From a bacterium (GTDB taxonomy: Bacteria; JADJOY01), in contig JAXLQJ010000028.1 of the NCBI GenBank assembly GCA_046331705.1, positions 1-64,000 of the forward strand: a stretch of 64,000 bases of DNA, given 5' to 3'. The position numbers were made by a program, and so were the translations under genes. The notes beneath the pieces are model-generated. The model made no database searches and was not told where the DNA came from. It saw only the letters and a program-made list of their open reading frames with translations. Position 1 is the first letter of the stretch, and each line of letters begins with the position of its first letter. Positions 2,333 through 64,000 of the stretch are shown here, one piece after another.

Positions 2333-3271
2333 ATGTCGATCCCGGTGCCTCTCTCCGAGGACGCGGTGGTGCGTCCTCATCGAGCCACATCGAGCTCCGC
2401 CGCGGGGCGCGACGCCGCTGGCCTCCACGATCTGGCGCTGGCGTGGCGGGCGTTGCGGGCGCCGCAATGGCTGCACTTCCTGGTGGTGCCCGCGCTGCCG
2501 CTGCACGCGCTGCTGGGGATCTCGCCGCGTGAAGCCCTCGCTCACTTTCTCCCGGCGGCGCTGGTGGCCTCGCTCTGCCTCGCGTTCGGCTACGGCATCA
2601 ACGCGATCGCCGACCGCGATGGCGATCGCGACGGCACCAAGAACCCACTGGCGGGACGCGCTCGAGTCCCCACCGCCGTGTGGATCGCGGTGCTGGCGAG
2701 CGGCATCGCCGCGCTCGCGCTGGCGTGGCGAGACGCCGCCACCTTGCGCGCGACGCCCGTGTTGATCTCGCTCGCCGCGAGCGCGCTCTACAGCGTCGGG
2801 CCGCGGCTCAAGTGCGTCCCCGTCATCGGCACCCTCACGAACCTCTTCATCTTCACGCCGCTCGCCGCGCTGACGCGGCTCGACGGCACGGACGCGCCTC
2901 ACCTCGGGCTCTTGCTCGTGACCTTCGTGGTGCTGCTCACCCAGAACCAGCTCGTCCACGAGGCCGGCGACCTGGTCGAAGACCGCGGCGCGGGAACCGC
3001 GAGCTCCACGGTCATCTTCGGCACCCGCGCGTCGACGCGGGCGGCGCGCGCGCTGGGAATCGCGGCGGCGTTCGCGTTCGTCGCGGTGTGGGGACCGACC
3101 GGGATGGTGCTCTTCGCGAGCGCGGCGCCGCTCGGCGGGGGAATCCTGATCGGCAGCACGTCTTCCGAGGAGGCGGCGCGCGTGCGCCACGTGCATCGCC
3201 GCCTATCGCTCATCGCCGGCGCCATCTTGTTCCTCCTGGCGGCCGCCTCCACGACGGGCCACCACCCATGA
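2333..3271 (+). CDS. UbiA-family prenyltransferase (polytopic membrane protein)
   Basis: Asp-rich motifs NAIADRDGD...KNPL and HEAGDLVED, YSVGPRLK, multiple hydrophobic helices; ATGA overlap with the next gene. Confidence 0.8.
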   Translation: MSIPVPLSEDAVVRPHRATSSSAAGRDAAGLHDLALAWRALRAPQWLHFLVVPALPLHALLGISPREALAHFLPAALVASLCLAFGYGINAIADRDGDRDGTKNPLAGRARVPTAVWIAVLASGIAALALAWRDAATLRATPVLISLAASALYSVGPRLKCVPVIGTLTNLFIFTPLAALTRLDGTDAPHLGLLLVTFVVLLTQNQLVHEAGDLVEDRGAGTASSTVIFGTRASTRAARALGIAAAFAFVAVWGPTGMVLFASAAPLGGGILIGSTSSEEAARVRHVHRRLSLIAGAILFLLAAASTTGHHP

Positions 3272-4320
3272 CGGGCCCACGGCTTCCCGCGGCGCGCTCG
3301 CTGGCCCGCCTCGGCTGGGCGATGGCCACGCGCCGTCGGCTGCCGTTCTCGATGGTGTTCATCCTGACGAACCGCTGCAACTTCCAATGCGAGTACTGCA
3401 ACATCCCGGCGCAAGCGGGCGACGAGATGAGCGAGGCCGAGTTCCGGCGCGCCATCGACGAGCTCACGGCGCTGGGCATGTCGCGCGCGGCCTTCAGCGG
3501 CGGTGAGGTCACCATCCGACGCGAGTGCGCACCACTGATCGGGTACGCGAAATCGCTCGGGCTCTTCACCTCGATGAACACCAACGCCTGGCTGAGCGCG
3601 GCGCAGATCGACGAGCTCACGCCGAATCTGGACATGGTCGTCACGTCGCTCGACGGCCCCGAGGACGTCCACGACGAGGTGCGCCACCGCAAGGGCTCGT
3701 ACCGGCGGGTGATGGCCTCGCTGGAGCGCTTCTTGGGCTCGGGGGTGGCGGTCGCGACCATCACCACCCTAGGCCCATGGAACCTGCCCCACGTCGAATG
3801 GGTGCTCGAGCAGGCGGAGCGCTTGGGCTTCTTCGCGTATTTCCAGCCCGCCTACGAGGATTGCTTCCACCTCGAGGCCGGCATTCATTCGACGTTCGAC
3901 GGCGCGACCCTCGACTCGATCGCCGCGCGGCTTCAGGTCGCGCGCGCGAGCGGCCGGCCGGTGGGCTCGTCTCCGGGCTACTTCGAGCGGCTCTCGCGCG
4001 CGCCACGCTTCTCCGATTGCGGCACGTGCAAGGCCGGCATCTACTTCGGCACCGTGCTCGCCGATGGCCGCGTCATCCCCTGCCACCTGACCTCCGAGGG
4101 CGCCTACCTCAACGGTCGCGAGGTGGGATTCGCGCGAGCCTTCCTGGAAGCTCCCCATCCCGCCAGCGGCCCCGGCTGCAGCGTCACGCCCCTGGTCGAG
4201 AACGACTTGATCTTCAGCCTCGAGCCACGCGCGATCCTCGCCGCAGCACGCCAGATCCGCGCCGCGCGCCGCACCGCGAAGCCGCGCGCCGCGCGCGGCC
4301 AGCCGGCCGCGCCGGCGTGA
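3268..4320 (+). CDS. Radical SAM protein with C-terminal Cys-rich (SPASM/twitch-like) region
   Basis: CNFQCEYC (CxxxCxxC), FSGGE, SLDG, C-terminal CGTC...DGRVIPC...C. Start set at ATG 3268, overlapping the UbiA stop. Confidence 0.85.
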   Translation: MTGPRLPAARSLARLGWAMATRRRLPFSMVFILTNRCNFQCEYCNIPAQAGDEMSEAEFRRAIDELTALGMSRAAFSGGEVTIRRECAPLIGYAKSLGLFTSMNTNAWLSAAQIDELTPNLDMVVTSLDGPEDVHDEVRHRKGSYRRVMASLERFLGSGVAVATITTLGPWNLPHVEWVLEQAERLGFFAYFQPAYEDCFHLEAGIHSTFDGATLDSIAARLQVARASGRPVGSSPGYFERLSRAPRFSDCGTCKAGIYFGTVLADGRVIPCHLTSEGAYLNGREVGFARAFLEAPHPASGPGCSVTPLVENDLIFSLEPRAILAAARQIRAARRTAKPRAARGQPAAPA

Positions 4321-4408
4321 GCGGCGGGCGCCGGCCACCGTCCGCGTCCGCCGAGCGCGCCCGAGCGCGCCGCGCGCGGCAACCGTGCTCGCGTACGCGA
4401 GCTCCGCG

Positions 4409-5740
4409 ATGAACAAGCTCTTCTTCACCCACATGCTGATCACGGGCCTGGTGCTCGTGCTCGTGATCCGCCGCCTGCTCGCGGCCTCCGATCGGTTCGA
4501 GGCGCTGCGGCGGATCCTGCGGGGCGCCGCCGTGGTGCTGGCCCTGCCGCCGCTGATCTTCTACGCGAGCACGCTCGAATCGCTTCCGCTGTGGGCCAGC
4601 GGGTCGTGGCTCGCGCTGGCGGCGCTGGTGGGATACGCGGTGAAGCGCCGCGGTCGGCGCGCCCTGACGGTGGCGCTCGCGGTGGCGGCCTACACGGTGG
4701 TCCACACGTGGTTCGCGACGTGGCTCTTCTGGACGTTGTCGCCTGGCTGTCGCGAGGTCTGGAGCCAGCCCGGCGCGGTGCGGCTCGACGTGGACGAGGA
4801 CCCATCGCTCCCGCTCCTCAAGAACCGCGGCGAGTACGCGATCGAGGTCGATCCCGAGGAGCGCTTCGTGTACGCGAGCTACGCGCACCGCGGCTTCCTC
4901 AAGGGCGTCGCGCGCATGCGGATCGACGCGCCGGGCGACGTCACGCGGCTCGATGTGGGCGCGCGCGGCATCCTGCACGTGCGCTTCGACCCGGCCAGCC
5001 GCCGGATCTTCGCCGCCGACCACGTCGACGGTCAGCTCTACGTCCTCGCCGAGGAACCGTTCCGCGTGCTCGAGACCATCCCCCTGGGCGCCCAGGAGCC
5101 GATGGATCTGATCATCGACGCGCCGGCACGGCGACTGGTCGTGATCGATCGCACCGAGATCCCGCACGCGCCGAACCGCCCCGATCGCTTCGCCGGGCTG
5201 CTCGTCTTCGACCTCGCCGCGCCGCGCGAGCGCCTGGGCCGCATCTCCCTCGACGAGTTCGCGGGCGCCAACGAGCTCATCACGGTGCCTGGCGAGCGGC
5301 GCATCTTCGTCACCAGCGAGGGCTACATCACGCTCTTCGCCCACGACTTCGTGACCCAGACGAGCCGGCTGATCCGCACGTTCATCCCTGGCATCGGCGG
5401 AGGCGCCGTCGATGCCGAGCGCCGCGAGCTCTACCTCACCCACACCACCGGGCTCGTGCAGGTGCGCGACCTGGATACGCTCGGCTACGAGCGCACGCTG
5501 TTCGTGCGTGGCGCGCGCGCGGTGGTGGTGGACGCCGCGCGCCGAGCGCTCTACATCGGCGACTTCTTCAACGGCCGGGTGAGCCGCATCGATCCCGAGA
5601 CCGGCGCGTCACTCGGATCGATCCGCGTCGGCGTGCGCATGCGTCAGATGAAGGTGCTGCGCGACGGGCGGCTGCTCACGGCCGGCGGGTGCGGAGTCGT
5701 CGTGCTGAACCCGCCGAGAGCCTCGGCGGCGGCGAGCTGA
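4409..5740 (+). CDS. Membrane-anchored beta-propeller protein (YncE/YVTN-like), paralog 1
   Basis: About four N-terminal TM helices, then repeated blade motifs (VDPEERFVYAS, FDPASRRIFAAD, VDAERRELYLT, VDAARRALYIGD); ends AGGCGV. Confidence 0.7.
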   Translation: MNKLFFTHMLITGLVLVLVIRRLLAASDRFEALRRILRGAAVVLALPPLIFYASTLESLPLWASGSWLALAALVGYAVKRRGRRALTVALAVAAYTVVHTWFATWLFWTLSPGCREVWSQPGAVRLDVDEDPSLPLLKNRGEYAIEVDPEERFVYASYAHRGFLKGVARMRIDAPGDVTRLDVGARGILHVRFDPASRRIFAADHVDGQLYVLAEEPFRVLETIPLGAQEPMDLIIDAPARRLVVIDRTEIPHAPNRPDRFAGLLVFDLAAPRERLGRISLDEFAGANELITVPGERRIFVTSEGYITLFAHDFVTQTSRLIRTFIPGIGGGAVDAERRELYLTHTTGLVQVRDLDTLGYERTLFVRGARAVVVDAARRALYIGDFFNGRVSRIDPETGASLGSIRVGVRMRQMKVLRDGRLLTAGGCGVVVLNPPRASAAAS

Positions 5741-5767: not shown

Positions 5768-7081
5768 ATGAACCAATACTTCTTCACCCACATGCTGCTG
5801 GCCGGCCTCGCCGTGCTCGGCGCGGTCTGGCTGGTGTGGATGATCGGCCGTTACGCGGCGCCGCTGCGGCGCTTGCTGCGGATCGCCGCGCTGACCATCG
5901 CGGTGCCGCCCGTGGTCTTCTACACCAGCACGCTCGCGATGCTGCCGCTGTGGGCGAGCGTTCCGTGGGGAGTGATCGTCGCGCTCGCGTACCGTGCCCT
6001 GCGCCGACACGGCATCGGCCGCACCACGGCGATCGCCGGCCTCGGCGCGTACTCGGTCTTCCACACCTGGCTCTTCACGTGCGTCTTCTTCGCGACGTCC
6101 CCCGGCTGCGAGGCGGTCTGGCGCCAACCGGGCGCGGTGCGCCTGGATAGCCAGCCGGACACCACCATGGTCGCGATCCTGCAAAACCGCGGGGAATACG
6201 GGCTCGACGTCGATCCCGAGGAGCGCTTCGCGTACGCGACCTACGCCCACGGCGGCCAGCTCAGCGGCGTGGTACGGGTGTCACTCGAGAAACCCGGCGA
6301 CACCCAGCGCGTGGACCTCGGCGCGCGCGGAATCCTGCACGCGCGCTTCGAGCCGAGCACGCGGCGGATCTATGCCGTGGACCACAAGAATGCCGAGCTC
6401 TACGTGCTCGACGCGGATCCCTTTCGGCTGGTCCAAACGGTCCAGATGAAGGTCCAGGCGCCGATGGATCTCGCGTTCGATCCGGCGGCGGGGCAGGTGC
6501 TGGTGATCGACCGAACGGAAATCGCCGACGCGCCCAATCCCGGCGATCGATTCGCGGGCCTGGTCGCGTTCGACCTCGCGGCGCCCGGCGCTCCCGTCGG
6601 CCGTTACGCGCTCGACAACCATCCGGGGGCCAACGAGATCATCACCGTGCCCGGCGAACGGCGCGCCTTCGTCACCAGCGAGGGGTTCATCACGCTGTGC
6701 GCGTACGACTACGCGAGCCATACGAGCCAGCTGCTCTTCACCGGCATTCCCGGGATCGGCGGAGGCGCCGTCGACGCCGAGCGGCGCGAGCTCTACTTAT
6801 CCCACACGATCGGGTTGGTGCAGGTGCGCGACGTGGACCGGTTCGACTACAAGCGGACCCTGTTCGTGCGCGGTGCCCGCGCGGTGACGGTCGACCCCGT
6901 GCGCAAGGCGCTCTACGTCGCGGACTTCTTCAACGGCCGCGTCAAACGCGTCGATCCCGAAAGCGGTTCCGTGCTCGGGTCCGTCCGGGTCGGCGTCCGC
7001 ATGCGACAGATGAAGGTGCTGCGCGACGGCCGGCTGCTGACGGCGAGCGCCTGCGGGATCGGGGTGCTGAATCCACCGTGA
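5768..7081 (+). CDS. Membrane-anchored beta-propeller protein, paralog 2 (tandem duplicate of 4409-5740)
   Basis: Collinear with the previous gene, with long identical stretches (IPGIGGGAVDAERRELYL, RVGVRMRQMKVLRDGRLLTA). Confidence 0.72.
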   Translation: MNQYFFTHMLLAGLAVLGAVWLVWMIGRYAAPLRRLLRIAALTIAVPPVVFYTSTLAMLPLWASVPWGVIVALAYRALRRHGIGRTTAIAGLGAYSVFHTWLFTCVFFATSPGCEAVWRQPGAVRLDSQPDTTMVAILQNRGEYGLDVDPEERFAYATYAHGGQLSGVVRVSLEKPGDTQRVDLGARGILHARFEPSTRRIYAVDHKNAELYVLDADPFRLVQTVQMKVQAPMDLAFDPAAGQVLVIDRTEIADAPNPGDRFAGLVAFDLAAPGAPVGRYALDNHPGANEIITVPGERRAFVTSEGFITLCAYDYASHTSQLLFTGIPGIGGGAVDAERRELYLSHTIGLVQVRDVDRFDYKRTLFVRGARAVTVDPVRKALYVADFFNGRVKRVDPESGSVLGSVRVGVRMRQMKVLRDGRLLTASACGIGVLNPP

Positions 7082-7222: not shown

Positions 7223-8356
7223 ATGAACGCTGGCTCAGCGCATCCGCGTCCGCAGCGAGCGGACGTGAGCGTCGTCGTTCCCAGCCATGACGCGGCGCGG
7301 ACCCTGGAGCGCTGTGTCGCGAGCGCGCTCGCGAGCGACGAGCCGCCGCTCGAGGTGATCATCGCCGACGACGCCTCGACGGATGCGACAGCGCGAATCG
7401 CCGCCGCGCTGAGCGCGGCGTACCCGGAGCACGTCCGCTGCGTTCGTCTGGTCGAGCGACGCGGGCCCGCTTCCGCCCGCAACGCCGGCGCGCGAGCGGC
7501 GCGAGCGCCGCTGCTCTTCTTTCTCGACGCCGACACCGAGCTCGAGGCCGACGCGCTGACCCATTTCCGCACCACGATTCGGGACGCCGACGCCGTCTGC
7601 GGCGTCTACTCGCCGACACCGCTCGCTCCCGCCGGCGCCGGCGCACGCTACAAGGCGCTCTTCGATCACTTCAGCTTCTCGCGCGCGGGCGTGACCGGAT
7701 ACGACGGGTTCTCCGCGTACTGCGGCGGCGTTCGTCGGGACGTCTTCTTCGCCGTGGGCGGCTTCGACGAATCCCTCGGGCCGGGGGCCGAGCGCGAGAA
7801 CGAGGAGTTCGGCTACCGGCTGTCCCAGGCGCACCGCGTCCTCATCGATCCCGCGATTCGCGCGCGGCACCATTTCGCGGGCGTCGGGCGACTGAGCCGC
7901 AACTACTTCGTGCGCGTGATGCAGTGGACCGGCCTCTTCCTGGAACGCGGGCGCTTCGAGAGCGCCGGCGACGCGACCGCCGCGGGATCGATCCGCACCC
8001 TCGCGGCGCCGCTTGCGGCTGGCGCTTGGCTGCTGACGCCTCACCTCCCGGACGCGCTGCCGGTCGCCGTCGCGCTCGCGGTCGTCTGGGCAGCGGGCGC
8101 GTGGCCGTTCGTGCGATTCGTCGCGGGCGAGCAGCCGCGCTTCGTGCTCGCGGCGATCGTGCTCAACGTCCATTTCTCGTTCGTCATCAGCGCGGGCGCC
8201 GCGCTGGGGGCGTTACGCCACGTGGCGCAGCGACTCGCTTCTCCGAGACGCGCGCCCGAGACGCCCGCCGATCGCGATCCAGCGGGACCGCCGACTCCGT
8301 TCCCGCCTGCCGCGACGGATCGGGTCGCGGCCGTGCGCGCCGCCCCACCCGGTTGA
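7223..8356 (+). CDS. Glycosyltransferase family 2 with C-terminal membrane helices
   Basis: VSVVVPS, IIADDASTD, GPASARNAG, DxD motif FLDAD, VGGFDE; hydrophobic C-terminus. Confidence 0.88.
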   Translation: MNAGSAHPRPQRADVSVVVPSHDAARTLERCVASALASDEPPLEVIIADDASTDATARIAAALSAAYPEHVRCVRLVERRGPASARNAGARAARAPLLFFLDADTELEADALTHFRTTIRDADAVCGVYSPTPLAPAGAGARYKALFDHFSFSRAGVTGYDGFSAYCGGVRRDVFFAVGGFDESLGPGAERENEEFGYRLSQAHRVLIDPAIRARHHFAGVGRLSRNYFVRVMQWTGLFLERGRFESAGDATAAGSIRTLAAPLAAGAWLLTPHLPDALPVAVALAVVWAAGAWPFVRFVAGEQPRFVLAAIVLNVHFSFVISAGAALGALRHVAQRLASPRRAPETPADRDPAGPPTPFPPAATDRVAAVRAAPPG

Positions 8357-8360
8357 GCGC

Positions 8361-9485
8361 ATGCCGTTGCCGCAGATCCTCGGCACGCTGCGGGCCCTCG
8401 CCGATCCCCGGCAGGTCGGCTACCTCATCTTCTACGTCACGAACCGCTGCAACTTTTCCTGCGATTTTTGCTTCTATCACGAGGAAATCGCCAAGGGACG
8501 AAAGGACGACGAGCTCGCCGTCGACGAGATCGAGCGGCTGGCGGCGAAGCTCGGCCCGCTCGCCCAGCTCTCGCTCACGGGCGGCGAGCCGTTCATCCGC
8601 CCCGAGCTGATCGAGATCGCCACGGCGTTCTTGACGCACACCCACGCGCGCTGGGTCACGATCCCGACCAACGGCTGGTTCAGCGAGCGCGTCGAGCGAG
8701 CGCTCGACGTCCTGACGGCTCGCTTTCCGACCTCCAACTTTCGAGTGGTGCTGTCGGTGGACGGTATCGAGAGCCAGCACGACGTGGAGCGCCAGGCGCC
8801 GGGTTCCTGGCAACGGCTGTGCGAGACCTACGCCGCCGTCGATCGGCTACGGCGGCGCCGCGAGAACCTGGTCCTCGACGCGAACACGGTCTACTCGTCG
8901 CGCACCCAGGCTCACGTCCTCGCGATCCTGCGCGCGCTCGACGAGCGCTTCGCGTTCGACAACCTGTCGCTCACCTACACCCGCGGCCGCCTGCGCGACC
9001 GCGCCCTCGAGCCGACCTTGCACGAGCCCTACCAGCGAGCGCGCCAGCTGATCCTCGAGCGCGCGCGACGCGACGAGGGCCGAGCGCTGTCGAGCGTCTG
9101 GCGCGCCGTCGACGACGTCTCGCACGAGCTCTTGGCACGCGTGGTCTTCGAGGATCGATTCGCGGTCCCGTGCGTCGCCGGTCGCAAGCTGGTCGTCGTC
9201 GGCGAGACCGGCGACGTGTTCCCGTGCGAGGTCCTCGGGACCCGCGTCGGCAACGTCCGCGACGTCGACTACGACTTGCACCGGCTCCTCGCTGCTCCGC
9301 TGAACGAGCGGCTGGTTCGCTGGATCCGCGACAGCCGCTGCAAGTGCTCGTTCGAATGCGCCCACGCGGCCAACACCGTGTGGAACCGGTCCGCGTACCC
9401 AGCCATCGGCCGAGCGTGGCTGCGCAACGCGCTTCGGCGTACCACCCACGAGGCACTCGGTCCGGCCCAGGCTCCCGGCACCTGA
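8361..9485 (+). CDS. Radical SAM/SPASM-domain protein
   Basis: CNFSCDFC, LTGGEPF, C-terminal CVAG...GDVFPCE...GNV...CKCSFEC. Confidence 0.88.
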   Translation: MPLPQILGTLRALADPRQVGYLIFYVTNRCNFSCDFCFYHEEIAKGRKDDELAVDEIERLAAKLGPLAQLSLTGGEPFIRPELIEIATAFLTHTHARWVTIPTNGWFSERVERALDVLTARFPTSNFRVVLSVDGIESQHDVERQAPGSWQRLCETYAAVDRLRRRRENLVLDANTVYSSRTQAHVLAILRALDERFAFDNLSLTYTRGRLRDRALEPTLHEPYQRARQLILERARRDEGRALSSVWRAVDDVSHELLARVVFEDRFAVPCVAGRKLVVVGETGDVFPCEVLGTRVGNVRDVDYDLHRLLAAPLNERLVRWIRDSRCKCSFECAHAANTVWNRSAYPAIGRAWLRNALRRTTHEALGPAQAPGT

Positions 9486-9610
9486 GACGTCATGTCGCCG
9501 CTCGCACGAACCTCGCCCTGGACTCGCTCGACGCGACGGCGCCGCAGCCAGCGCGCGCCCGTTTCCCGAGCTCCCCGACCGAGGCGACTCGACTCGTCGC
9601 GACCAATCCG

Positions 9611-10597: not shown

Positions 10598-10723
10598 ACG
10601 CCGCGGCGCGGTTCGTGGGCGCTGGCGGCGGCTGCAACGAGCGCTGGGCGCGCCGACCAGGGCACGCAGCCCCCGCGACGTCGCCTCGCGATCCACGCGT
10701 GTGACCGGCTCCACCTCCAGCGC

Positions 10724-12604: not shown

Positions 12605-12744
12605 GCGCGGCCGAGCTGCGCGCGGCGCCACCCTCACGAACCCGACACCCCGCCCCGACACGCTGGCCCCGGGGGACGAGCGTTGTATCTTCCGGCACCC
12701 AGCCGCGGGCGACGCCCCCTCGACCGCGCCGGCGAGCCTTCGAC

Positions 12745-20731: not shown

Positions 20732-20752
20732 GGGCGTGCTCGGGGACCGGTG

Positions 20753-36800: not shown

Positions 36801-36807
36801 CGAACCG

Positions 36808-39881: not shown

Positions 39882-39899
39882 GCGCCGCGCCCAGCGGGC

Positions 39900-50781: not shown

Positions 50782-50882
50782 CGCGACGATCGGCGACGCG
50801 CGATTCGAGTCGGGCGCAGACCTCGGCCGCGTCGTCGGCGCGGCCGGGTCTGCGTTCCGGAGGCTTCCGACGGAACCCCGGC

Positions 50883-54748: not shown

Positions 54749-57174
54749 CCCGTCTCTCCACCCACGGCGAACGCGAGTCGCTCGGCGCGCTGGGCCGCCA
54801 CCAAGACCGGCACCGGTCGCATCCCGCCCTCCGCCTGCCAATGCGAGGCATCCGTCTTGCGGTAGAGCCACCGCACCGAGACCTCGAGCACGCCGAGCGG
54901 GCTCGGCGCATCCCACTCGAACTCCTCGGTCTGCGAATCGCCGGGCAGGATCACCCGCGCGCCCGACGACGACGTGCCGTGCCAGAGCGCAGGCGCGCGC
55001 TGCGGCGACGGCCCCGTCGCGGCGCCCGGCGCCCGCACCACCGTCCCCAATCGATGGGCGTCGTCTCCGAGGCGACCCGCGTCGTCGAGCAATCCGCTCG
55101 CGAAGACCGTCCGGCCATCCTCGTCACGCACCCGTACCTCGAGCCACGCCTCCAGTCGATCGATCGAGCCCGCCGGGAACGGATGCGTCATCCAGGGGTT
55201 CGACGTGGTCACCGCGAGACGCGCCCGACCCGGCACAGGCGCGCTCAGCGCCAACGCGATCGGCAAGCACGGTTCGCGCAAGGCCTCCGCCGGAAGCGGC
55301 GTCTCGGCCTCGCCCGGGACGTCGCGCGGGCGCGGCGCGCTCGCCACACACGCGCCGAGCGCCCACGCCGATTGCGCGGACGCGAGCGCCTCGTCGCCCA
55401 CGCGCACCGCCGCCGCCAGGTTCGCGCCGGGAAAGAGATGGCTCTTGTGCGCGCCCGCGCCGCCCAGCGCCGTCGCCGCGGGCATGTGGCAATCGACGCA
55501 GCGGATCCCCGCGACCAGCACGCGGATCTGCAGGTGATGGCAGGTCTGGCAGACGCGATCCTCGGCGAGCACCGCCGGCGAGAAGGCGCGCCCGTGCGCG
55601 GCCCCGTTGAGGCCGATCGTGTAGCGGTCGAAGGCGCCCAGCCCGCGCCGCTCTCGCACCGCGTCGCGGTACGGTCCGAGCAGACCACCCGTCAAGCTCA
55701 CGGTGTAGCTCGACTCCCACGGTGGATCGACGGCGACGTCGGCGATGCGGTGGCAGAGCACGCAATCGATCGCGTCGGCGCGCGCGTCGCTCCGTGGCGC
55801 CGCGAGCTCGCCCGCGGGCGCGCTCGGCGCATGACAGGCGACACACCCCGGCGACGTCGCGAGCGGCGATTCCTCTCGCGGTGCTGCCAGCGCATGCGCC
55901 CCTGAGCCGTGCAACGAGCGATGGGACTCCGCGACGATCTCCGCGTGGCAGCCACCCTCCCCGGCGCACGAGCCCGAGAGCTGGAGCCAGCGATCGGCGG
56001 CGGCGCGCGCGAGCGGCGGCTCGGCTGCTTCCGCCGCGCCACGTCCAACGCTGGCGACGACCGTGATGTCGCCCGGGCCGGCCGGCAACCAGGACTCGCC
56101 GAGCACCAAGGCCACCAACGCGCCGACCGCGATCGCCGCGCCGCGCCACGCGCCCGCGAACGCGCCCGACCCGCCGCTTCCCGCGGCGCGGCCGACGAGC
56201 GCGGCCGACCCGATCGCGACCAGACCCCACACCGTGTGCACGTTGTAGAGGTGTCGATCGTGCTCGCGGCTGATGCGCAGGATCACCAGCCACGCCATGC
56301 TCACGACCACCAGCAACGGCGCCGTCCACACCACCAATCCGAGCGCGCTCCTGCGCACCTCCGGGGCCGGGCCGCGCTTGAGCAGCCCGCGCGCCACGAA
56401 CACCGCGCCCACCACCAGCACCGGCAGCGAGATCCGCCCATCGACGGCGTCGCGGGGCAGGCTGGTGCTCACCATGACCGCCTTGCGCACCGGAACCAGC
56501 GCGAACAGGATCGACAAGCCGATCCACAGCGACAGCGGCATGCGCGCCGCTTCCATCCGCAGCCGCCGACCGAGGCTCAGGAAGAGCTGCCACAGCACGA
56601 TGCAAGCGGCGGTGACCCAGCCGACGAGACCGATCAGCGTGCCCGTGAGCGTTCGAGACGCGAACGGCTCGAGGTCGTGACGTCCGGTCGCGGGAATCAG
56701 GATCACCAGCCCCAGGGCCGCCGCCGCGAGCCACGCCGCGATCGCGACCAGCCCGGCGAGCGACGCGACGCGTGCTCGCTTGTCGCGAAACGTCGACGCC
56801 AACCCACGCGCGAGCAGCGACGCGCCCACCACCGCCGCCGGCAAGACCACGCGGCCGTCCACCCAGTCGGATTGGTCGGTCGCCAGCCGATCGAGCACCC
56901 ACGCCCGCGCGGGAGCGATCGCGGCGAGGATCATGAGCCCGAGCCCCGCGGCGGCCTCGACGCGCGAGCCCTCGCCGTCCACGCGGCGAAACACCAGGCG
57001 CAAGACCAGCGCGAACGCGAGGAATCCCAGCAGCGGGTGCAGGACGAGGTTCCAGCGAAAGACGAAGCCCGCACCGGAGACGAGATTGACCAAGCCCGAG
57101 GCCATCGCCAGCGCGACAGCGATCGCGAGGCGGGCGCGCGCCGGTTCGGATCCGGACGGCGCGCGCGGGTCCAT
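54745..57174 (-). CDS. Membrane-anchored pentaheme c-type cytochrome with internally duplicated TM domain (closest to 18698-20731)
   Basis: CAGEGGCH, CVACH, CVLCH, CQTCH, CVDCH; AHGRAF, HLFPGAN, MTHPFP, WLEVRV, YRK shared with 18698-20731. Confidence 0.8.
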   Translation of the reverse strand: MDPRAPSGSEPARARLAIAVALAMASGLVNLVSGAGFVFRWNLVLHPLLGFLAFALVLRLVFRRVDGEGSRVEAAAGLGLMILAAIAPARAWVLDRLATDQSDWVDGRVVLPAAVVGASLLARGLASTFRDKRARVASLAGLVAIAAWLAAAALGLVILIPATGRHDLEPFASRTLTGTLIGLVGWVTAACIVLWQLFLSLGRRLRMEAARMPLSLWIGLSILFALVPVRKAVMVSTSLPRDAVDGRISLPVLVVGAVFVARGLLKRGPAPEVRRSALGLVVWTAPLLVVVSMAWLVILRISREHDRHLYNVHTVWGLVAIGSAALVGRAAGSGGSGAFAGAWRGAAIAVGALVALVLGESWLPAGPGDITVVASVGRGAAEAAEPPLARAAADRWLQLSGSCAGEGGCHAEIVAESHRSLHGSGAHALAAPREESPLATSPGCVACHAPSAPAGELAAPRSDARADAIDCVLCHRIADVAVDPPWESSYTVSLTGGLLGPYRDAVRERRGLGAFDRYTIGLNGAAHGRAFSPAVLAEDRVCQTCHHLQIRVLVAGIRCVDCHMPAATALGGAGAHKSHLFPGANLAAAVRVGDEALASAQSAWALGACVASAPRPRDVPGEAETPLPAEALREPCLPIALALSAPVPGRARLAVTTSNPWMTHPFPAGSIDRLEAWLEVRVRDEDGRTVFASGLLDDAGRLGDDAHRLGTVVRAPGAATGPSPQRAPALWHGTSSSGARVILPGDSQTEEFEWDAPSPLGVLEVSVRWLYRKTDASHWQAEGGMRPVPVLVAAQRAERLAFAVGGETG
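56220..56990 (-). repeat. Intragenic tandem duplication of an approximately 139-aa membrane module
   Basis: VDGRVVLPAAVVGASLLARGL (near 56862) and VDGRISLPVLVVGAVFVARGL (near 56445) are 417 bp apart in the same ORF; boundaries are approximate. Confidence 0.65.
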
Positions 57175-57318: not shown

Positions 57319-58884
57319 TCACGGAGAAGGAACGACGCCGGGCACGGCGGCCAGATCCCAGACGAAGACTCCGCAGCCGCTCGCGGCGAGCACCTCGTGG
57401 CGAACGCGATCCGCTACGACGTTGCGCAGCAGCCAGCCGAGCCGCGCGCTCGCCACCGGCGCGAGATCGGCGAGCGAGTAGAGCGCGAGCGTACCCGTGT
57501 ACGAACCGACGGCGACCACCCCAGCGCCGGGGTCCAGATCCACGTCCGCCAACCCGCTCGCCTCGAGCGTCACGTACGCGACTGGCGCGAGCGTGGCGGT
57601 GTCGATGCGCACCAGCCGTCGCCGCAGCGGGTCGGCGACGAACGCCGCGTGCTCTCCTTCGTCGAGCCGCACGCCGATCAGCGCCGAGCCGTAGCTCGCG
57701 GCGCTCGCGACGAGCATCTCGGTGTCGACGACCCGCAATCCCGGCGCCGCCGTGGACGTGGAATAGAGCGTGCGACCGTCGGCGCTCACGTCGAGGTACT
57801 GGAACGGCACGTCCAGCGCCGGATCGGTGCTGCGACGCGCGACCGCGGGCGAGGGTCCGCGCAGCTCGAGGATGCCTTTCTCCGTCGCGGCGGAGAGAAG
57901 CACCCAGACGCGGTCGCTCGTGGGATCGGCCCGGATCGCATTGGGCTCGCCGCCGAGCGGTATCACCGTGGGCGCGCCGAAGCGCCCTCCTTCGACGACC
58001 ACGTCCAGCACGGCATCGGCGGAGCCGAGCACCAGCGCAAGCACCTCGTCGTGGCGCACCGCCATCCGCTCGGGAAAGAGCGGCGGCGCGGGAAGCGGCG
58101 CGAACGCCTCGGCGAGCTCGAGCACGTCCTCGACAATTCCGGTCTCGCGATCCACCAGCACCAGCGCCCCGTACGAGCGCGCGTCCGCCTTCACCGACAC
58201 CACCAGATCCTCGCCGACGACCTGCACGTCGTACGGTCGCCCGGTGGCGAGGCCGGTCGCGGCGCGCAGCGATTCGGTGGACACCACCCGTCGCAACCCG
58301 CTCGCGACGAGCGGCGCGGCACAGGTCGAAGCCGGCGGTCCCAGCTTGAACCCGTAGAACGTCGCCACACCGAGGGCCGGCAACACCACCGCGAGGCTCG
58401 TGAAACGCGTGGCCCACGAGGCACGCCGCGGCAGCACGAGGATCGTCAGCGCGAGCGCGAGCGTCGTCGCCACGGTTGCCCGCGGGAAGAGGCCGTACGC
58501 GGACGCGAGGTGCGCGAGCACGCGCGGGCCGGTCTCGCCCGTCGCGTACTCGACGATCCTTCGCACTGGCCCGAATCGCTCGCCGCCCACCGCGCCGGCC
58601 GAGGGAAAGAGGGCGTGGCTCGCGACGTACGCGAGCAGCCAGAACGCGCACGCGAACGCCTGCCGATGGCGGTGCACCCCGCGTGCGAGCCGCGCATAGA
58701 CGAGCCCGGTGACGAGGCCGAGAGCGCCGCCGATCACCAGGTGACCGAAGCCGCCGACGTCGGGCGGCTCCCACGCCGCCGACAGGGTCATCGCCGCGAG
58801 CGCGCCGAGGGCGCCCGCCAGCGACGCCGAAGCCCGCGAGCGCGCGACGGTCGCGCCGATTGGATCGGTTGGGAAGCGGCGCAA
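57319..58884 (-). CDS. Membrane-anchored beta-propeller protein, paralog 9 (start uncertain)
   Basis: N-terminal TM helices; GRPYDVQV, IRADPTSDRVWV, LGWLLRNVVADRVRHEVLAASGCGV. Confidence 0.65.
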   Translation of the reverse strand: MRRFPTDPIGATVARSRASASLAGALGALAAMTLSAAWEPPDVGGFGHLVIGGALGLVTGLVYARLARGVHRHRQAFACAFWLLAYVASHALFPSAGAVGGERFGPVRRIVEYATGETGPRVLAHLASAYGLFPRATVATTLALALTILVLPRRASWATRFTSLAVVLPALGVATFYGFKLGPPASTCAAPLVASGLRRVVSTESLRAATGLATGRPYDVQVVGEDLVVSVKADARSYGALVLVDRETGIVEDVLELAEAFAPLPAPPLFPERMAVRHDEVLALVLGSADAVLDVVVEGGRFGAPTVIPLGGEPNAIRADPTSDRVWVLLSAATEKGILELRGPSPAVARRSTDPALDVPFQYLDVSADGRTLYSTSTAAPGLRVVDTEMLVASAASYGSALIGVRLDEGEHAAFVADPLRRRLVRIDTATLAPVAYVTLEASGLADVDLDPGAGVVAVGSYTGTLALYSLADLAPVASARLGWLLRNVVADRVRHEVLAASGCGVFVWDLAAVPGVVPSP

Positions 58885-58964: not shown

Positions 58965-60680
58965 GTGAAACGAATCCATGTCGTAGGCGGTCTCGGCGTC
59001 GCCCTGACGCTGGCGGTGGCGACGTGGCCTCCGCCGGGATTCGAGCCCACCGCGCGCGGCCGCGGGCTGAGCGCGTGGGAGGACGACCTCACGTACGGTC
59101 GTCCCGACGAGCGGATCGCCGCGGCGCGCGAGGTCGCCGCGCTGGCTCGCCGCGCGGCGGTGATCGAGGCGCTGAGGCGCGACCCGGTGCGCGCGGCGCT
59201 CGCCTCCGACGATCCCGCGACCCGCGGCTCCGTGCTGCGCTCGCTGCTGGGAGCGCCGGAGGCCCTCGCGCCACTGATCTCCGCGCTCGAGCAGCTCCCA
59301 CACGCGAGCCAGCGCGACGCGTTCGCTGCCCTCGCGGGCGCCCTCGCCGCGGAGCTCGCTTCCGGCTCCCCACCGACGGCGGCTAGCGCGGGAGGCGAAA
59401 CCGCGTGCGGTGAGGAATCGCCCGACGGGATGGCCAGCGACGATTCGCCGGGAGCTCCGGGCATCGCGGCGCGCCGCGCGGCGCGCGACGCGCGCTGTCG
59501 ATTCACGCTCAGGCTCGTCGAGCGCGGCGACTTCGGGATGCGCGAGTTCTGGCTGCTCGCAAGCCGGCTCACGAGCCATGGGATCGGCGTGCGCGTGCCG
59601 AGCCCGCCCTCCAACCACGGCAACCTGCTCGCCGACCCCGACCCGCGGGTGCGGCGCGAGGCGGCGGTGGCGATTCTGCGCATGGGACCCGAGGCCCGGG
59701 CCACTGCCGAGAAGGTCGTGCAGCGCGAGAAGCCGGCAGTCCGAACCGTGGCGCTGCGCGAGCTCGCGGAGGCGCGTGCTCACCTGCCCGCGTTCGACCT
59801 CGACGCGGCGCTCGCTCCCCTCGACGCGCACGCGCTGGAACGACTGTTCGCCGGCGCCGCCCGCACCGGCGCGAGCGCGGCACCACTGCTCGAGCGCGCG
59901 CTCGCCGACGAGCGCGTCGAGGTGCGGCGCTGGGCGGCCTGGTCCGCCCGCGAGCTCGCTCCGAGCCTCGGCATGGCCTCCTGGCTCGCGCCCCACGCCC
60001 ACGATCCGGACGACGACGTCCGACGATTCACGCTGGTGGCCGCGGCCCGCGCCGCCGACGCCGAGGCCGCGAGGCTCGGGCTGTTGCGCGCCGGCCTCGG
60101 CGATCCGGCGATCGCGGTGCGCCACGCCGCCACCGCGGAGCTGGTGCGGCTGGGCGAGCCTGGCTGCGCAACGCTCGCAGGGGCGCTCGCCCGAGACGAC
60201 TCCGATGGCGACGACACCCTCGCTCGGGTGCTCGCCGGTTCACGCGCGCCACTCCCCACCACTGCGGCGTGCGCCGAGCTCGTCGCAGCGCTGGTGCGAG
60301 TGCTTCCAAGGGCGTCCCCCGCCACCAGCGGCGCGATCCAGACGGCAATCGCGCGCGGCGCGGCGCCGGACGCCCTCACGCTGCTGCTCGGCGATGCGGA
60401 TCCGAGCGTCCGCTTGCGGGCACTCGGCGTTCTCGGTCAGCAGCGCGGGCGCGACGACGCCGAGCGCGCGCGCATCGCCGCGTCGCTGGCGGGACTGCTG
60501 CCGGACCCTGACCCCTTGGTGCGTCGCGCCGCGCTGGCGGCCCTGACTCGGCTGGGCGGCGATGCGCTGCGGTCGGTCGCCGAGCCGATTGGCGCGCTGG
60601 CGCGCGGCGACGCCGACGTCCGCGTGCGTGCGCGGGCCGAGCGCGCCCTCGCCCGGCTCGCGGGAGCGCCACGTTCATGA
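58965..60680 (+). CDS. HEAT-repeat protein with N-terminal signal/TM
   Basis: Repeated LADPDPRVRREAA, LADERVEVRRWAA, LGDADPSVRLRAL, LPDPDPLVRRAAL motifs. Confidence 0.72.
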   Translation: MKRIHVVGGLGVALTLAVATWPPPGFEPTARGRGLSAWEDDLTYGRPDERIAAAREVAALARRAAVIEALRRDPVRAALASDDPATRGSVLRSLLGAPEALAPLISALEQLPHASQRDAFAALAGALAAELASGSPPTAASAGGETACGEESPDGMASDDSPGAPGIAARRAARDARCRFTLRLVERGDFGMREFWLLASRLTSHGIGVRVPSPPSNHGNLLADPDPRVRREAAVAILRMGPEARATAEKVVQREKPAVRTVALRELAEARAHLPAFDLDAALAPLDAHALERLFAGAARTGASAAPLLERALADERVEVRRWAAWSARELAPSLGMASWLAPHAHDPDDDVRRFTLVAAARAADAEAARLGLLRAGLGDPAIAVRHAATAELVRLGEPGCATLAGALARDDSDGDDTLARVLAGSRAPLPTTAACAELVAALVRVLPRASPATSGAIQTAIARGAAPDALTLLLGDADPSVRLRALGVLGQQRGRDDAERARIAASLAGLLPDPDPLVRRAALAALTRLGGDALRSVAEPIGALARGDADVRVRARAERALARLAGAPRS

Positions 60681-61828
60681 GCGCGCCGGTGCCGCTCGCG
60701 CTGCCGAGCGTCGGCGCGGCCGAACGGGCCGCGGTCGGCGAGGTGCTGGCGTCGGGCTGGCTCGCGCAAGGTCCGCGCGTGGCGGCGTTCGAGGACGCGC
60801 TCGCACGCGTGATCGACGCACCGCACGTGGTCGCCACGTCGTCGGGAACGGCCGCGCTGCTGCTGGCGCTGCGCGTGGCGGGCGTCCAACCGGGCGATCG
60901 CGTGCTGGTGCCGTCGCTCACCTACATCGCCACGGTGAACGCCGTGGTCGCCGCCGGCGCGATCCCCGTCTTCGCGGACGTGGACGCGCGCACGCTCAAC
61001 CTGGACGTGGCCGACGCCGAGCGCGCGATCGCCGCGGAGGGTCCCGTCGCGGCGGTGCTGCTGGTGCACCAGCTCGGGCATCCCGCAGCGCTCGGGGCGT
61101 TTCGCGCGCTCGCGAAACGCACCGGCACGCTGCTCCTCGAAGATGCGGCGTGCGCGCTGGGCAGCACCATCCACGGACGCCCGATCGGCGCGCGCGCGCC
61201 CGGCGAGCGCGGTGGCGCAGCGCTCAGCTTCCACCCTCGCAAGGTCGTCACCACCGGCGAGGGCGGCGCGCTCGTCACGGGCTCCGCCGCGGAAGCGGAC
61301 GCGGCGCGCGCCTTTCGCGACCAGGGCGCCGATCGCGGCGCCCACGAGCGCCAGCGGCTCGGCCAGCGCGAGCCCGAGCACTACGCGGCACCCGGATTCA
61401 ATCTGCGCATGTCCGATCTCGAGGCCGCGGTGGGACTGGCGCAGCTCGGGCGTCTCGACGCGATGCTGGCTGCGCGACGGCGGCTCGCCGCCCGCTACGA
61501 CGAGCTCCTCGCCGAGGTGAGCGGGATCATGCCGTTTCGTTTCGAGCCCGGGATCGTGCCGAACCGGCAGAGCTACGCGGTCGTGGTCGACGAATCGATC
61601 GCGCCGGAGGGAGTGTGCGCCGCGCTCGCCGAGCGTGGCATCGCGACGCGGCGCGCGGTGATGGCCGCGCACCTCGAGCCCGCGTATCGGGCCTTCGCCA
61701 CGCGCCCGCTCGAGACGACCGAAGCGCTGGCGCGGCGTGCCCTCGCGTTGCCGCTCTTTCCCGATCTCACGGACACCGACCAGGACCGAGTCGTCGCGGC
61801 GTTGCGCGCCGCGACTCGCGCGCGCTGA
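60677..61828 (+). CDS. DegT/DnrJ/EryC1/StrS-family PLP-dependent sugar aminotransferase
   Basis: SSGTAAL, VPSLTYIATVNAV, EDAACALG, SFHPRKVVTTGEGG, GFNLRMSD, LALPLFP. Confidence 0.9.
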   Translation: MSAPVPLALPSVGAAERAAVGEVLASGWLAQGPRVAAFEDALARVIDAPHVVATSSGTAALLLALRVAGVQPGDRVLVPSLTYIATVNAVVAAGAIPVFADVDARTLNLDVADAERAIAAEGPVAAVLLVHQLGHPAALGAFRALAKRTGTLLLEDAACALGSTIHGRPIGARAPGERGGAALSFHPRKVVTTGEGGALVTGSAAEADAARAFRDQGADRGAHERQRLGQREPEHYAAPGFNLRMSDLEAAVGLAQLGRLDAMLAARRRLAARYDELLAEVSGIMPFRFEPGIVPNRQSYAVVVDESIAPEGVCAALAERGIATRRAVMAAHLEPAYRAFATRPLETTEALARRALALPLFPDLTDTDQDRVVAALRAATRAR

Positions 61829-61917
61829 CTTCTGGCGCGCTGACCCCCTTGCTCGCGCGGAGCCGCGGTTCCTACACTGAGCGCCCCGTCTCGCGCGAAG
61901 CCCGAATCGGCGGGTTC

Positions 61918-62988
61918 GTGGCTCTCATTCTCGACACGTCCCACACCTCGACCACCGCGCGGGCACTGCCGGTGCGTGTCGGCGTGGTCGGCGCGGGCTA
62001 TTGGGGAACCAACGTCGTCCGCAGCCTGGGTTGGGTGCCGGGCGCCGAGCTGGGCTGGGTATGCGATCGCGAGGCGAGCCGTCTGGCGCCGTTCGCCGCG
62101 CGCCTGCCCCGCACGCGCTTCACCACCTCGCTCGACGAGCTGCTCGCCGATCCCACGCTCGACGCGTTGCTGGTGGCGATTCACGCACCGGCGCAAGCGG
62201 AGGTGGCGATCCGGGCGCTCGGGGCCGGCAAGCACGTGTTCGTCGAGAAGCCCCTCGCCCTGACGCTCGAGGGCGCCGAGCGCGTGGTGGCCGCCGCGGA
62301 GCGCGCGGATCGCGTCCTGATGCTCGGCTTGACCTACCGCTACAACCCGCTGGTGGAGGCGGTCGCCCGACTCTTGGGTTCCGGCGCGCTGGGCGAGGTG
62401 CGCGCGTGCTTCTCGCAACGCTCGAACCTGACGGTGGAGGATCAGCACACCAACGCCCTGTGGTCGCTGGCGCCCCACGACGTGTCGATCCTGCACCACC
62501 TCTTCGGCGAGCCGACACGCGTCGCGGCACGCGGCGGGCGTCACGCCCACGGCAGGCCCGCCGCATCCGCGTGGCTGAGGTTCGATTGGCAGGGCGGCCC
62601 GACGGCGTGGGTCTTCGTCAGCCTGGTCGATCCGCCCAAGCGCCGCCTGCTGGTGATCGTCGGCACGGAGCGGGCGCTGATCTTCGACGAGCTGGCGCCG
62701 CCCGCCACGCGGCTGCGACTCGTCGACGCAGGCGCGGTGCGCTGGCGCGGCGACGCGAGCATTCCCGCGCTTCCCACCGACCTCGGAACGGCGATCGCGG
62801 TGCTCGACGGCGAGCCGCTGGTGCACGAATGCGAGCACTTCGTGGCCTGCGTCCGCGCCGGCAGCGAGCCGCTCACCGGCCGCCGCGCCGCGCTCGACGT
62901 GACTCGCATCCTGGAGGCGCTACAGCGGTCGCTCGACGGCCACGGCTGCTTCGTCGATCCGCGCGGCGCTGCCGTCCCCGCCAGCTGA
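61918..62988 (+). CDS. Gfo/Idh/MocA-family NAD(P)-dependent oxidoreductase (start uncertain)
   Basis: VGVVGAGYWG, GKHVFVEKPLA, LWSLAPHDVS, EPLVHECEHF. Confidence 0.88.
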   Translation: MALILDTSHTSTTARALPVRVGVVGAGYWGTNVVRSLGWVPGAELGWVCDREASRLAPFAARLPRTRFTTSLDELLADPTLDALLVAIHAPAQAEVAIRALGAGKHVFVEKPLALTLEGAERVVAAAERADRVLMLGLTYRYNPLVEAVARLLGSGALGEVRACFSQRSNLTVEDQHTNALWSLAPHDVSILHHLFGEPTRVAARGGRHAHGRPAASAWLRFDWQGGPTAWVFVSLVDPPKRRLLVIVGTERALIFDELAPPATRLRLVDAGAVRWRGDASIPALPTDLGTAIAVLDGEPLVHECEHFVACVRAGSEPLTGRRAALDVTRILEALQRSLDGHGCFVDPRGAAVPAS

Positions 62989-64000
62989 GATCGGGACCGT
63001 CCGTTCCGCCAGCGTCGTCACCGGCAACGGTGGCGCGCCGTCGCCGAGCGCGAGGCGAGCGAAGTGCCGGTTGATCCCGCGGTGCAGGAGCCGGCCGTGG
63101 AGCTCGAACGGCGGCTGCGCGTCGGCGGGGACCGACACCGGCAAGCGCCGCTCGATCCGTCCTCCCGGTGGCACCGTCAGGTCCTCGAGATGACCGGCGG
63201 CGGAGAGGATGTCGTGATCCAGGATCGCGCGCCCTTCCCCGTCGCGAAACACGCGCCGCAAGGCCAGCGAATCCGCCGCGCGCTCGCCCTCGGGCCCGTC
63301 GAAGCCCGAGCGCCAGATCGAGCGGTTCGCGCCATCGCGCACCTCGAGCTCGACCCACGCGTCGTTGAGGTCGAGCGCCCCCGACGGAAATCCGTGACCG
63401 ACGCCGCGACTGCGGATCACCACGTCGAGCTGCAGGCCGGGCGTCGACCCCGGCGCCGTCGCGGGCTCGATTCGGCCGGCGAGCGCCAGCTCGAGGTCGG
63501 CGCTCTTCAGGAACCCGACCAGCGCATCGAGCTGCAGCGCGTCGTTCGCGACCGCGGCGAGGTGCGTGTTCCCGCCGAGGAACCGGTGGCTCGCCTCACG
63601 CGGACCCGGCCGATCCGGGTCCTCCACCTTGGGCATGTGGCACGAGACACAGGGGCGCCGGGTGGCACCGGGCTGGGTGGGCTGGCCGGGCTGGTCGCCG
63701 AACGGACCGCGTCGCCACTCGCCGTACGTGTCCTGCTCGAGCAAGGCGAGCCCATCCGGGCCGTGCAGCTCGAGCGAATGGCATTCGCCGCACAGCGCCG
63801 GATCCGCGTAGCGAGACTCGCCGAGCATGTCCGCCATGTGATCGGGCCGCATGGCGTGGGCGCTGTAGCCCTCCATGGGCGGGCCGACGAAGAAACGCGG
63901 CGGGTCGAAGCGATAGCTGCCGCTGCCGACGTGATCGGGGGTGATCTGCAGGCGATGGCAGGCCAGGCACGAGACACCCTCCTGATCGGCGCTCGGGCCG
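62920..64000 (-). CDS. Multiheme c-type cytochrome of the same family, 5' part beyond the window end
   Basis: Frame is open to the window end (GVSCLACHRL near 63950-63978), then CGECH, TYGEW, CVSCHMP, SHRFLGGN, GHGFPSG...WVELEV. Confidence 0.8.
   Translation of the reverse strand, partial: GPSADQEGVSCLACHRLQITPDHVGSGSYRFDPPRFFVGPPMEGYSAHAMRPDHMADMLGESRYADPALCGECHSLELHGPDGLALLEQDTYGEWRRGPFGDQPGQPTQPGATRRPCVSCHMPKVEDPDRPGPREASHRFLGGNTHLAAVANDALQLDALVGFLKSADLELALAGRIEPATAPGSTPGLQLDVVIRSRGVGHGFPSGALDLNDAWVELEVRDGANRSIWRSGFDGPEGERAADSLALRRVFRDGEGRAILDHDILSAAGHLEDLTVPPGGRIERRLPVSVPADAQPPFELHGRLLHRGINRHFARLALGDGAPPLPVTTLAERTVPISAGGDGSAARIDEAAVAVERPL

Follow-up and report, generated by a model that had tools for sequence, protein, structure and literature searches.

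Cytochrome b–pentaheme fusions and anchored propellers in a radical SAM-rich locus that is part of a genome-wide guild of gene families

The stretch of DNA considered here, "the window", comprises positions 1 to 64,000 of contig JAXLQJ010000028.1 of the bacterial assembly GCA_046331705.1 (G000:C28:1-64000; a source genome of 8.17 Mb in 118 contigs, ~70% GC, rated 95.7% complete) and carries a set of membrane cytochromes, in which a cytochrome b domain is fused to a five-heme c-type head, interspersed with membrane-anchored beta-propellers and radical SAM enzymes. The reading that we favor, with a probability of roughly 45%, is that the cytochromes are trans-membrane electron conduits having interchangeable propeller partners and serving envelope tailoring. 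The unit to which these genes belong is not the window itself but a guild of families arranged in shuffled modules with the propeller as hub, the window being the densest patch of genome-wide expansions and not a self-contained system. The family of the source genome is represented in our collection by five other genomes, all remaining relatives belonging only to the same domain; G041 was treated as a second lineage, and G330, ranked "same domain", is apparently the same genome as G041 (same coordinates).

Cytochromes, propellers and other genes of the window

An earlier reading made from the letters alone (the original prediction) had recognized in the window seven related multiheme cytochrome genes plus a diheme one, with at least 35 heme-binding motifs. 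The motif count is exact, since 35 (30 CXXCH and five CX4CH/CX5CH first motifs) lie inside the window and 37 are reached once the gene cut at position 64000 is completed. Seven pentahemes and the diheme protein are indeed there, each of the former with five heme-c motifs, the first being CX4CH or CX5CH in six of them, but only six pentahemes are polytopic and clearly related (19–32% pairwise identity), the seventh, encoded at 43373-45397 (43373; genes are designated by their first coordinate), being a distant one. What had been overlooked is that in these six a cytochrome b domain is fused to the pentaheme head, and that an Ig-like domain is present in all but the short form 20753; in the Pfam scan no TPR family was found on them, and the proteins end after the Ig domain.

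In the AlphaFold model of 37779 (pLDDT 74) the head matches that of Thermochromatium tepidum cytochrome c552 (5ZE8; Foldseek E 3e-9; Z 23.4, root-mean-square deviation (rmsd) 3.6, 335 aligned, residues 242-692), as does the profile (E 1e-15), and the transmembrane (TM) part matches, more weakly, best superoxide oxidase 5oc0 (Z 11.0, rmsd 4.1, 141 aligned), followed by FdnI 1kqg (Z 10.1, rmsd 5.5, 147 aligned). Orthologues of 37779 are found on a record with prefix JADJOY01, which also serves as the label of a candidate phylum (L052, 76% identical), and on a JACPQY01 record deposited as Nitrospirae (L055, G041; 42%).

Genome-wide, 21 cytochromes were kept out of 27 iterated-profile matches; those dropped were a weak match, a fragment, 43373 and three copies from a contig end that shows 99.8% identity with contig C7. 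The latter belong to a 17.6-kb stretch with three cytochrome genes that is 99.8% identical between G000 C63:1-17642 and C7:64903-82536 and has a further continuation of 92-94% similarity, which can be read as a recent duplication or as strain mixture in the assembly. When the 21 paralogues are aligned, H64 is common to all and H178 to nearly all; with regard to the TM histidines, the outer pair (H64/H178) is counted in 21/21, all four are present in 15/21 and both inner ones are lost together in 4/21. The Ig-like domain occurs in 18/21 and is absent in three short forms, 20753 among them. Four distal histidines are invariant in all 18 long forms, in which the heme 4-5 loop, between 12 and more than 40 residues long, contains no conserved Cys, and no conserved sixth ligand of heme 2 was found among the paralogues, the heme-2 pocket varying widely. 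Since basic residues are more numerous before than after the last helix in 16 of the 21 proteins, the pentaheme head is placed in the periplasm.

Each of the three short forms has all four TM histidines and abuts a long form devoid of the inner pair, and similar short plus long pairs exist in G003 and G005; this juxtaposition suggests that the two forms may make up complementary heterodimers. The heme 4-5 loop of the short Ig-less forms (18698-22213; G000 C6:222452-225891; C7:77215-80853) contains a His and an additional Cys. Other variants of the architecture were seen. The orthologue of 54745 exists as a tandem pair in G001 (L148:5481-10586) and G002 (L149), each copy being 51-53% identical to 54745, and a 1262-aa database protein (P0003) has an unrelated hydrolase-like N-terminal half before a 46%-identical cytochrome, the junction looking like a frameshifted gene call.

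The nine paralogous TM + propeller genes of the original prediction are all present and are paralogues by profile; most are however only 15–27% identical (one pair 60%) and do not form a tandem array. In the whole genome 29 propellers, defined by an N-terminal membrane region followed by one propeller, were hand-picked from 48 iterated-profile matches. The single one folded, 35271 (pLDDT 77), has helices at its N-terminus and a propeller that matches E. coli YncE (3vgz) at E 1e-14, WD40 proteins being about as good; the YncE-like model NF052280 scored at most 19.2 bits, against its cut-off of 400. The mean column identity of the 29 is 18%, a single Gly is conserved in >90% and no His, Cys or Asp is invariant among them. 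A propeller subfamily with conserved motifs is matched in 9/401 genomes, i.e., the six of the source family, G330, G146 and G301. The complex predicted for the soluble domains of one pair (37779 head, 35271 propeller) received a score of 0.00 and a mark of 0.32 and weighs neither way.

Genes were called with a codon model, 41 being scanned against Pfam and 38 against NCBIfam (Table 1). All those named at the outset (UbiA, four radical SAM, GT2, two AsnB, SGNH, DegT and Gfo/Idh/MocA included) are intact, codon-typical open reading frames (ORFs), the four radical SAM genes being three SPASM-like and one B12, and the short, often overlapping operons are borne out by seven junctions with overlaps of 4-10 nt.

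Table 1. Genes and gene blocks of the window, with the evidence for each
Feature	Position	Strand	Basis or remark
UbiA-family prenyltransferase-like membrane protein	2333..3271	+	PF01040 E 1e-13; sole off-contig paralogue also adjoins a membrane pentaheme
Radical SAM enzyme (SPASM/twitch-like)	3322..4320	+	PF04055; no NCBIfam cut-off reached
TM + seven-bladed propeller	4385..5740	+	profile member; 60% identical to 5768..7081 gene
TM + seven-bladed propeller	5768..7081	+	profile member
GT2, two radical SAM, two AsnB-type amidotransferases (variable accessory block)	7223..14664	+	Pfam/NCBIfam scan; no orthologues in 120-kb syntenic stretch of G003
TM + propeller	14684..16306	+	profile member
Membrane-anchored SGNH hydrolase	16397..17650	-	PF13472
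Small multi-TM protein (239 aa), unnamed family often abutting membrane pentahemes	17643..18362	-	no Pfam match at E 1
Cytochrome b-pentaheme c-Ig fusion, long form, periplasmic-side His pair only	18698..20692	-	paralogue alignment
Cytochrome b-pentaheme c, short form without Ig domain, all four TM His	20753..22213	-	4-nt overlap with upstream propeller gene
TM + propeller	22210..23682	-	profile member
Multi-TM protein with spermidine-synthase-like domain	24089..26128	+	PF01564 E 6e-4; homologues between cytochromes or propellers in G000 C6, G041
TM + propeller (YGPTSG subfamily)	26073..27806	-	profile member
TM + propeller	27803..29284	-	profile member
Single-TM LVIVD-repeat propeller (separate family)	29275..31245	-	PF08309; both off-contig paralogues near core genes
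Cytochrome b-pentaheme c-Ig fusion	31242..33233	-	Pfam scan, paralogue alignment
B12-binding radical SAM enzyme, first of four-gene operon	33818..35260	+	operon kept in G001, G003, G004
TM + seven-bladed propeller	35271..36800	+	structure model
Membrane-anchored diheme cytochrome c	36808..37782	+	PF00034; TIGR02603 124.7 bits, cut-off 68.15
Cytochrome b-pentaheme c-Ig fusion	37779..39881	+	structure model; orthologue in second lineage
Separate block of secreted proteins (FG-GAP, CSLREA/choice-of-anchor Q, arylsulfotransferase) including distant pentaheme 43373-45397	41856..52826		
TM + propeller (YGPTSG subfamily)	53003..54643	-	profile member
Cytochrome b-pentaheme c-Ig fusion, enlarged TM region, outer His pair only	54745..57174	-	paralogue alignment
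TM + propeller	57319..58791	-	profile member
HEAT-repeat protein, DegT aminotransferase, Gfo/Idh/MocA oxidoreductase	58965..62988	+	Pfam
Cytochrome b-pentaheme c-Ig fusion, 3' part	62920..64000	-	gene starts at contig position 64959

The GC content is flat at 67-76%, no tRNA was found within the window, and no cassette- or integron-like repeats were found between its genes, the repeats present being FG-GAP units and paralogous coding stretches. An assembly chimera was rejected in view of the synteny in G001, G003 and G004. The locus extends beyond the window as far as the contig end (95.6 kb), this part including a seventh membrane pentaheme, two carbamoyltransferases, two SGNH, two Tes-like and three B12 radical SAM genes. 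Past the window, L011:7905-13922 (contig 69.9-75.9 kb) is a cassette of two carbamoyltransferases, a small ferritin-like protein, a DUF5989-like ORF (E 3e-4, under the cut-off) and SGNH, and L012:6815-16591, at the contig end, contains the two Tes/TrsS-like radical SAM genes, which are below the cut-offs (158.3 and 148.2 bits with NF045702, the model of the tetraether lipid synthase Tes, cut-off 450), and the three B12 ones. RNA from two runs of one study (5-7% of words) gave no evidence of transcription or co-transcription over 21000-40900, the pieces recovered being short and of low depth, some of them 99-100% identical; a metagenome scan yielded only three short loci, and Atlas matches were all under 0.9.

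The block of secreted proteins is probably not part of the guild. Its pentaheme 43373 is a distant, probably exported relative, having one N-terminal hydrophobic segment, a best match to the other pentahemes at E 7.6e-4 and a position among the soluble relatives; no PDB sequence match was found under E 0.07. An FG-GAP propeller gene without UnbV follows 20 nt downstream, the pair being kept in G001 and G003 and echoing the CRTAC1 pairing described below. Four secreted proteins of this block end in a Cys-containing, hydrophobic, Arg-rich tail resembling a protein-sorting signal; such tails number 23 in the genome by a loose pattern, and none of the four was matched by an NCBIfam sorting-signal model. 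For a likeness of the 239-aa membrane protein to carotenoid hydratases, the six plus three proteins tested gave no Pfam support; in G003 (L032:9207-11858) this family is fused in one ORF to the 54745 orthologue, a fusion that is absent in G001 and G002 and may be an assembly error. Elsewhere in the source genome a multi-copy family of ~307 aa (C6:226351-227289 and ten more), without library match and which we take to resemble REP-associated tyrosine transposases, has one copy within the C6 cytochrome cluster, and further multiheme clusters (C48:13789-17866, C19:67143-89556, C22:11585-20364) include proteins with 32 and 24 CXXCH.

Genome-wide expansion and gene neighborhood

The amplification of the two families, predicted to be 7- to 9-fold, is real but genome-wide rather than local. 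By profile, the source genome encodes 21 membrane pentaheme cytochromes, ~29 membrane-anchored propellers and 79 B12 radical SAM genes. PF02310 matches amount to 74 in the source genome, 62 in G003, 66 in G005 and 16 in G041; cytochrome matches to 20 in G003, 22 in G005 and 6 (full-length) in G041; propeller matches to at least 22 in G003 and at least 23 in G005 (best 150 candidates scored per genome) and 9 in G041.

The association among families was assessed with the genes outside the window's contig, within three genes and with 2000 random draws. Ten of the 20 propellers lie near a B12 radical SAM gene (random mean 1.16, maximum 6 in 2000 draws) and 6/14 cytochromes near a propeller (random mean 0.24). 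A propeller gene lies within 5 kb of 13/21 cytochromes in the source genome (0.7 expected), 5/17 in G003 (0.5), 7/21 in G005 (0.5) and 4/6 in G041 (0.1), these expectations ignoring contig ends and kin genomes sharing some pairs. Near the core families are also 3/3 Tes-like radical SAM genes, 2/2 LVIVD propellers and the single paralogues of the UbiA (1/1) and spermidine-synthase-like (1/1) genes, and all five Tes-like genes of the source genome are within three genes of a B12 radical SAM. No such enrichment was found for paralogues of GT2 (1/12), AsnB (1/3), DegT (1/11) and Gfo (1/6), with a background of 0.116, nor for those of carbamoyltransferase, FG-GAP and CSLREA, so that the proposed tie to the named sugar enzymes finds no support. 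What is retained of the modular membrane-bound redox apparatus of the original prediction is the heme b domain that spans the membrane and the co-location above chance in the source genome, its relatives and the second lineage; the window, however, is not one system.

The modules are visibly shuffled. For most genes between 24 and 54 kb of the window, G003 has orthologues in matching order, but the 120 kb read there yielded neither the GT2/AsnB block nor 18698-23682; G005 has the same families in new orders. In G041, four B12 and one Tes-like radical SAM gene lie downstream of an overlapping propeller-cytochrome-cytochrome-propeller run, and another cluster combines two homologues of window gene 24089 with two cytochromes and three propellers.

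More widely, the cytochrome profile matches 38/401 genomes at E 1e-40 (best two candidates scored per genome), many matches being soluble and some TPR fusions. In the membrane-form loci of other bacteria a CRTAC1-type gene is directly downstream in 7/13 cases, and in Granulicella tundricola three such genes flank the cytochrome. In a tree of 93 heads (2 truncated rows of 95 left out; a quick tree with midpoint root and SH-aLRT values only) the membrane-fused forms are set apart from the soluble ones (SH-aLRT 99), and those from other bacteria, of the CRTAC1/TPR type, form one subgroup (93). The G041 paralogues interleave with those of the source family in at least three subfamilies, which must thus be old or have been exchanged; an origin of the window's genes by tandem duplication was rejected, the six membrane cytochromes spanning at least four subfamilies, some common to G041.

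On these grounds of gene arrangement a functional tie between cytochromes and propellers, not of the one-to-one kind, would be fairly likely. Several observations weigh against the conduit-with-propellers reading. The TM fold scores (Z 10-11) are within the range that the tool warns of for helical bundles, and the periplasmic location of the propellers receives modest support from the positive-inside test (17/29 for, 7 ties, 5 against). Off-contig propellers are near a cytochrome in 4/20 cases (random mean 0.18), i.e., less often than near a B12 radical SAM gene (10 of 20), so that pairing is not one-to-one, although cytochrome-propeller proximity far exceeds chance in four genomes. Cytochromes are not enriched near B12 radical SAM genes in the source genome (2/14, random mean 0.82) and the link is weak in G003 (4/17 vs 1.3 expected); the related genomes are not independent; in 6/13 foreign cytochrome loci the gene directly downstream is not of the CRTAC1 type; and the propeller subfamily mentioned above is present in G146 and G301, where the stretches read contain no membrane pentaheme.

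These lone propellers, the majority of propellers without cytochrome neighbor, the cytochrome trio on C7 with no propeller within three genes, the gain and loss of blocks among congeners and the unrelated secreted-protein block inside the window are what could be expected if cytochromes, propellers and radical SAM enzymes were independent families gathering in variable envelope islands, with the cytochromes acting alone or together (short plus long, diheme). We consider this rather unlikely, in view of the 4-nt propeller-cytochrome overlaps in the window and in G041, of the ~10- to 30-fold cytochrome-propeller enrichment in four genomes and of the parallel pairing with a different propeller family in other bacteria.

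A possible electron path and its purpose

That the cytochromes are trans-membrane electron conduits is very probable, judging from the structure model and from conservation. Sequence and predicted fold show a b domain in which a periplasmic-side His pair is always present and a cytoplasmic-side one in most cases, and which one more helix joins to the periplasmic pentaheme plus Ig-like head. The subsequent path may be deduced from MccSep, a sequence relative of the window cytochromes (E 2e-5). In the part of the preprint available, MccSep is described as having four bis-His hemes and a His/Cys heme 2 with Sec325 (selenocysteine) beside it, heme 1 being the proposed entry of electrons from an unknown donor protein (bioRxiv 2025.11.18.688581). 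The four invariant distal histidines of the long forms correspond to those of the four bis-His hemes, and electrons could flow from the membrane, most likely the quinol pool, to heme b, c-heme 1, hemes 3 and 4 and finally heme 2; the fused b domain would represent the donor that MccSep takes from a separate protein. The head has one known activity, the polysulfide reduction by MccSep, with its donor unidentified, and the fusions suggest that the donor type is a membrane cytochrome b.

The b/c fusion logic, common to CbcL of Geobacter sulfurreducens, would also suit respiratory branching, in which the paralogues are quinol oxidases (or quinone reductases) of different potentials feeding periplasmic carriers and extracellular electron transfer, with the propellers as docking subunits. 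The genome does contain many other multiheme cytochromes and four cytochrome c assembly genes, the diheme c is translationally coupled to one paralogue and soluble head relatives adjoin genes with respiratory-looking best matches. Yet no catalytic respiratory subunit or porin gene was found beside the membrane forms in the loci annotated, with the exception of one foreign locus, L116, that adjoins a nitrate-reductase-type delta gene, and neither the variability of the heme-2 pocket nor the radical SAM genes nearby would be explained; we regard this alternative as distinctly unlikely.

At heme 2 the paralogues depart from MccSep. The profile positions aligned with its distal ligand C239 are L/Q, and no Cys or in-frame TGA equivalent to U325 was found after the GHxxPxG motif in any of the 18 long forms. 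Because heme 2 lacks the Cys ligand and the nearby Sec, and because its pocket differs among paralogues, each paralogue may act on a different periplasmic substrate or pass electrons to a partner. A heme 2 without conserved sixth ligand could instead be open to O2, superoxide, NO or sulfur species, to be bound or converted in sensing or in small-ligand chemistry such as oxidative cross-linking at the envelope; the best TM fold match is superoxide oxidase, and the head family includes, in the accessible part of its literature, a polysulfide reductase and domains fused to truncated hemoglobin. Nevertheless, 21 divergent paralogues whose pockets differ would not be required for a single small ligand, and the Cys and Sec of MccSep are absent, making this explanation very unlikely.

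Returning to the conduits with propeller partners, gene order would cast the anchored propellers as non-catalytic partners or as modules that present substrates, in the role played in other bacteria by the CRTAC1-type propeller found with the cytochrome. Most tentatively, the targets might be lipids of the envelope, or glycans linked to lipids, that the co-expanded B12 and Tes-like radical SAM enzymes make or modify, the propellers possibly linking the cytochrome and radical SAM sets. Envelope tailoring is the purpose that best fits the gene neighborhood, an indirect indication; hopanoids were rejected as its object, no squalene-hopene cyclase match having been found in the source genome (95.7% complete). 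In its boldest and doubtful form, this reading would be one of combinatorial tailoring, in which ~20 trans-membrane seven-heme (or six-heme) oxidoreductases, some of them short plus long heterodimers, dock on interchangeable propellers and catalyze redox steps in the periplasm, their substrates being the lipids or lipid-linked glycans that some eighty B12 radical SAM enzymes produce. If so, multiheme cytochromes would be biosynthetic enzymes and not respiratory wires, and the envelope link would explain the need of B12-radical-SAM-rich genomes for periplasmic redox power. The fusions offer, moreover, 21 natural active-site variants in one genome and, through a recurring propeller partner (CRTAC1-type elsewhere, YncE-type here), a testable role for two large families of unknown function.

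Relation to known systems

No characterized complex was found by library and structure comparisons to match the arrangement, as had been anticipated. In the literature searched by title or abstract start, with few subscription papers covered, neither the cytochrome b-pentaheme fusion nor a propeller pairing, that with CRTAC1 included, was found; the supplements of the MccSep preprint may list homologues of this fusion. The analogy originally drawn with cytochrome cd1, quinohemoprotein amine dehydrogenase and hydrazine synthase (HZS; PMC12758564, accessible in part) seems only loose: no family model matched, both window partners are inner-membrane proteins and no conserved catalytic residue was found in the alignment of the 29 propellers, one of which was folded.

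Closer is the cytochrome b-pentaheme-TPR plus CRTAC1 (FG-GAP/ASPIC-UnbV) pair, which has in common with the window the cytochrome core, the side of the tree and an adjoining propeller gene. Among the matches listed per genome, however, there are usually one or two such cytochromes, often with TPR, whereas the forms described here lack TPR, number ~20 in the genome, lie among radical SAM genes and are accompanied by a polytopic YncE-type propeller, and no PF07593 (ASPIC/UnbV) was found among the neighbors of the six membrane forms.

The head itself is that of the PHC family (cytochrome c552 5ZE8; sPHC/lPHC, PMC11976967; PtdA, bioRxiv 2023.11.21.568154), with which it shares the five-heme cap and an Ig-like domain at the C-terminus. 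The members described in the accessible parts of these sources are soluble periplasmic proteins or hemoglobin fusions; those studied here are fused to cytochrome b, often have CX4CH/CX5CH at heme 1 and exist in ~21 copies. MccSep/ExtKL of G. sulfurreducens (PDB 9WT8/9WT9) shares, as far as the available text goes, the head and the four distal histidines, whereas the window forms lack the C239 Cys and the U325 Sec/Cys and are membrane-integral; 37779 scores 29.3 bits with the MccSep/ExtKL model NF040886 (cut-off 250), which 2/21 members match at E 0.001. CbcL (bioRxiv 2022.08.31.506072, seen in part) likewise combines in one chain a diheme b membrane domain and a periplasmic multiheme c domain; it has nine c hemes and, from the residue numbers, the c domain first, whereas in the window the b domain precedes a five-heme PHC head, the likeness being one of architecture. 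The window cytochromes are proteins of the PHC family, neither MccSep nor CbcL, that would work like a CbcL with a PHC head.

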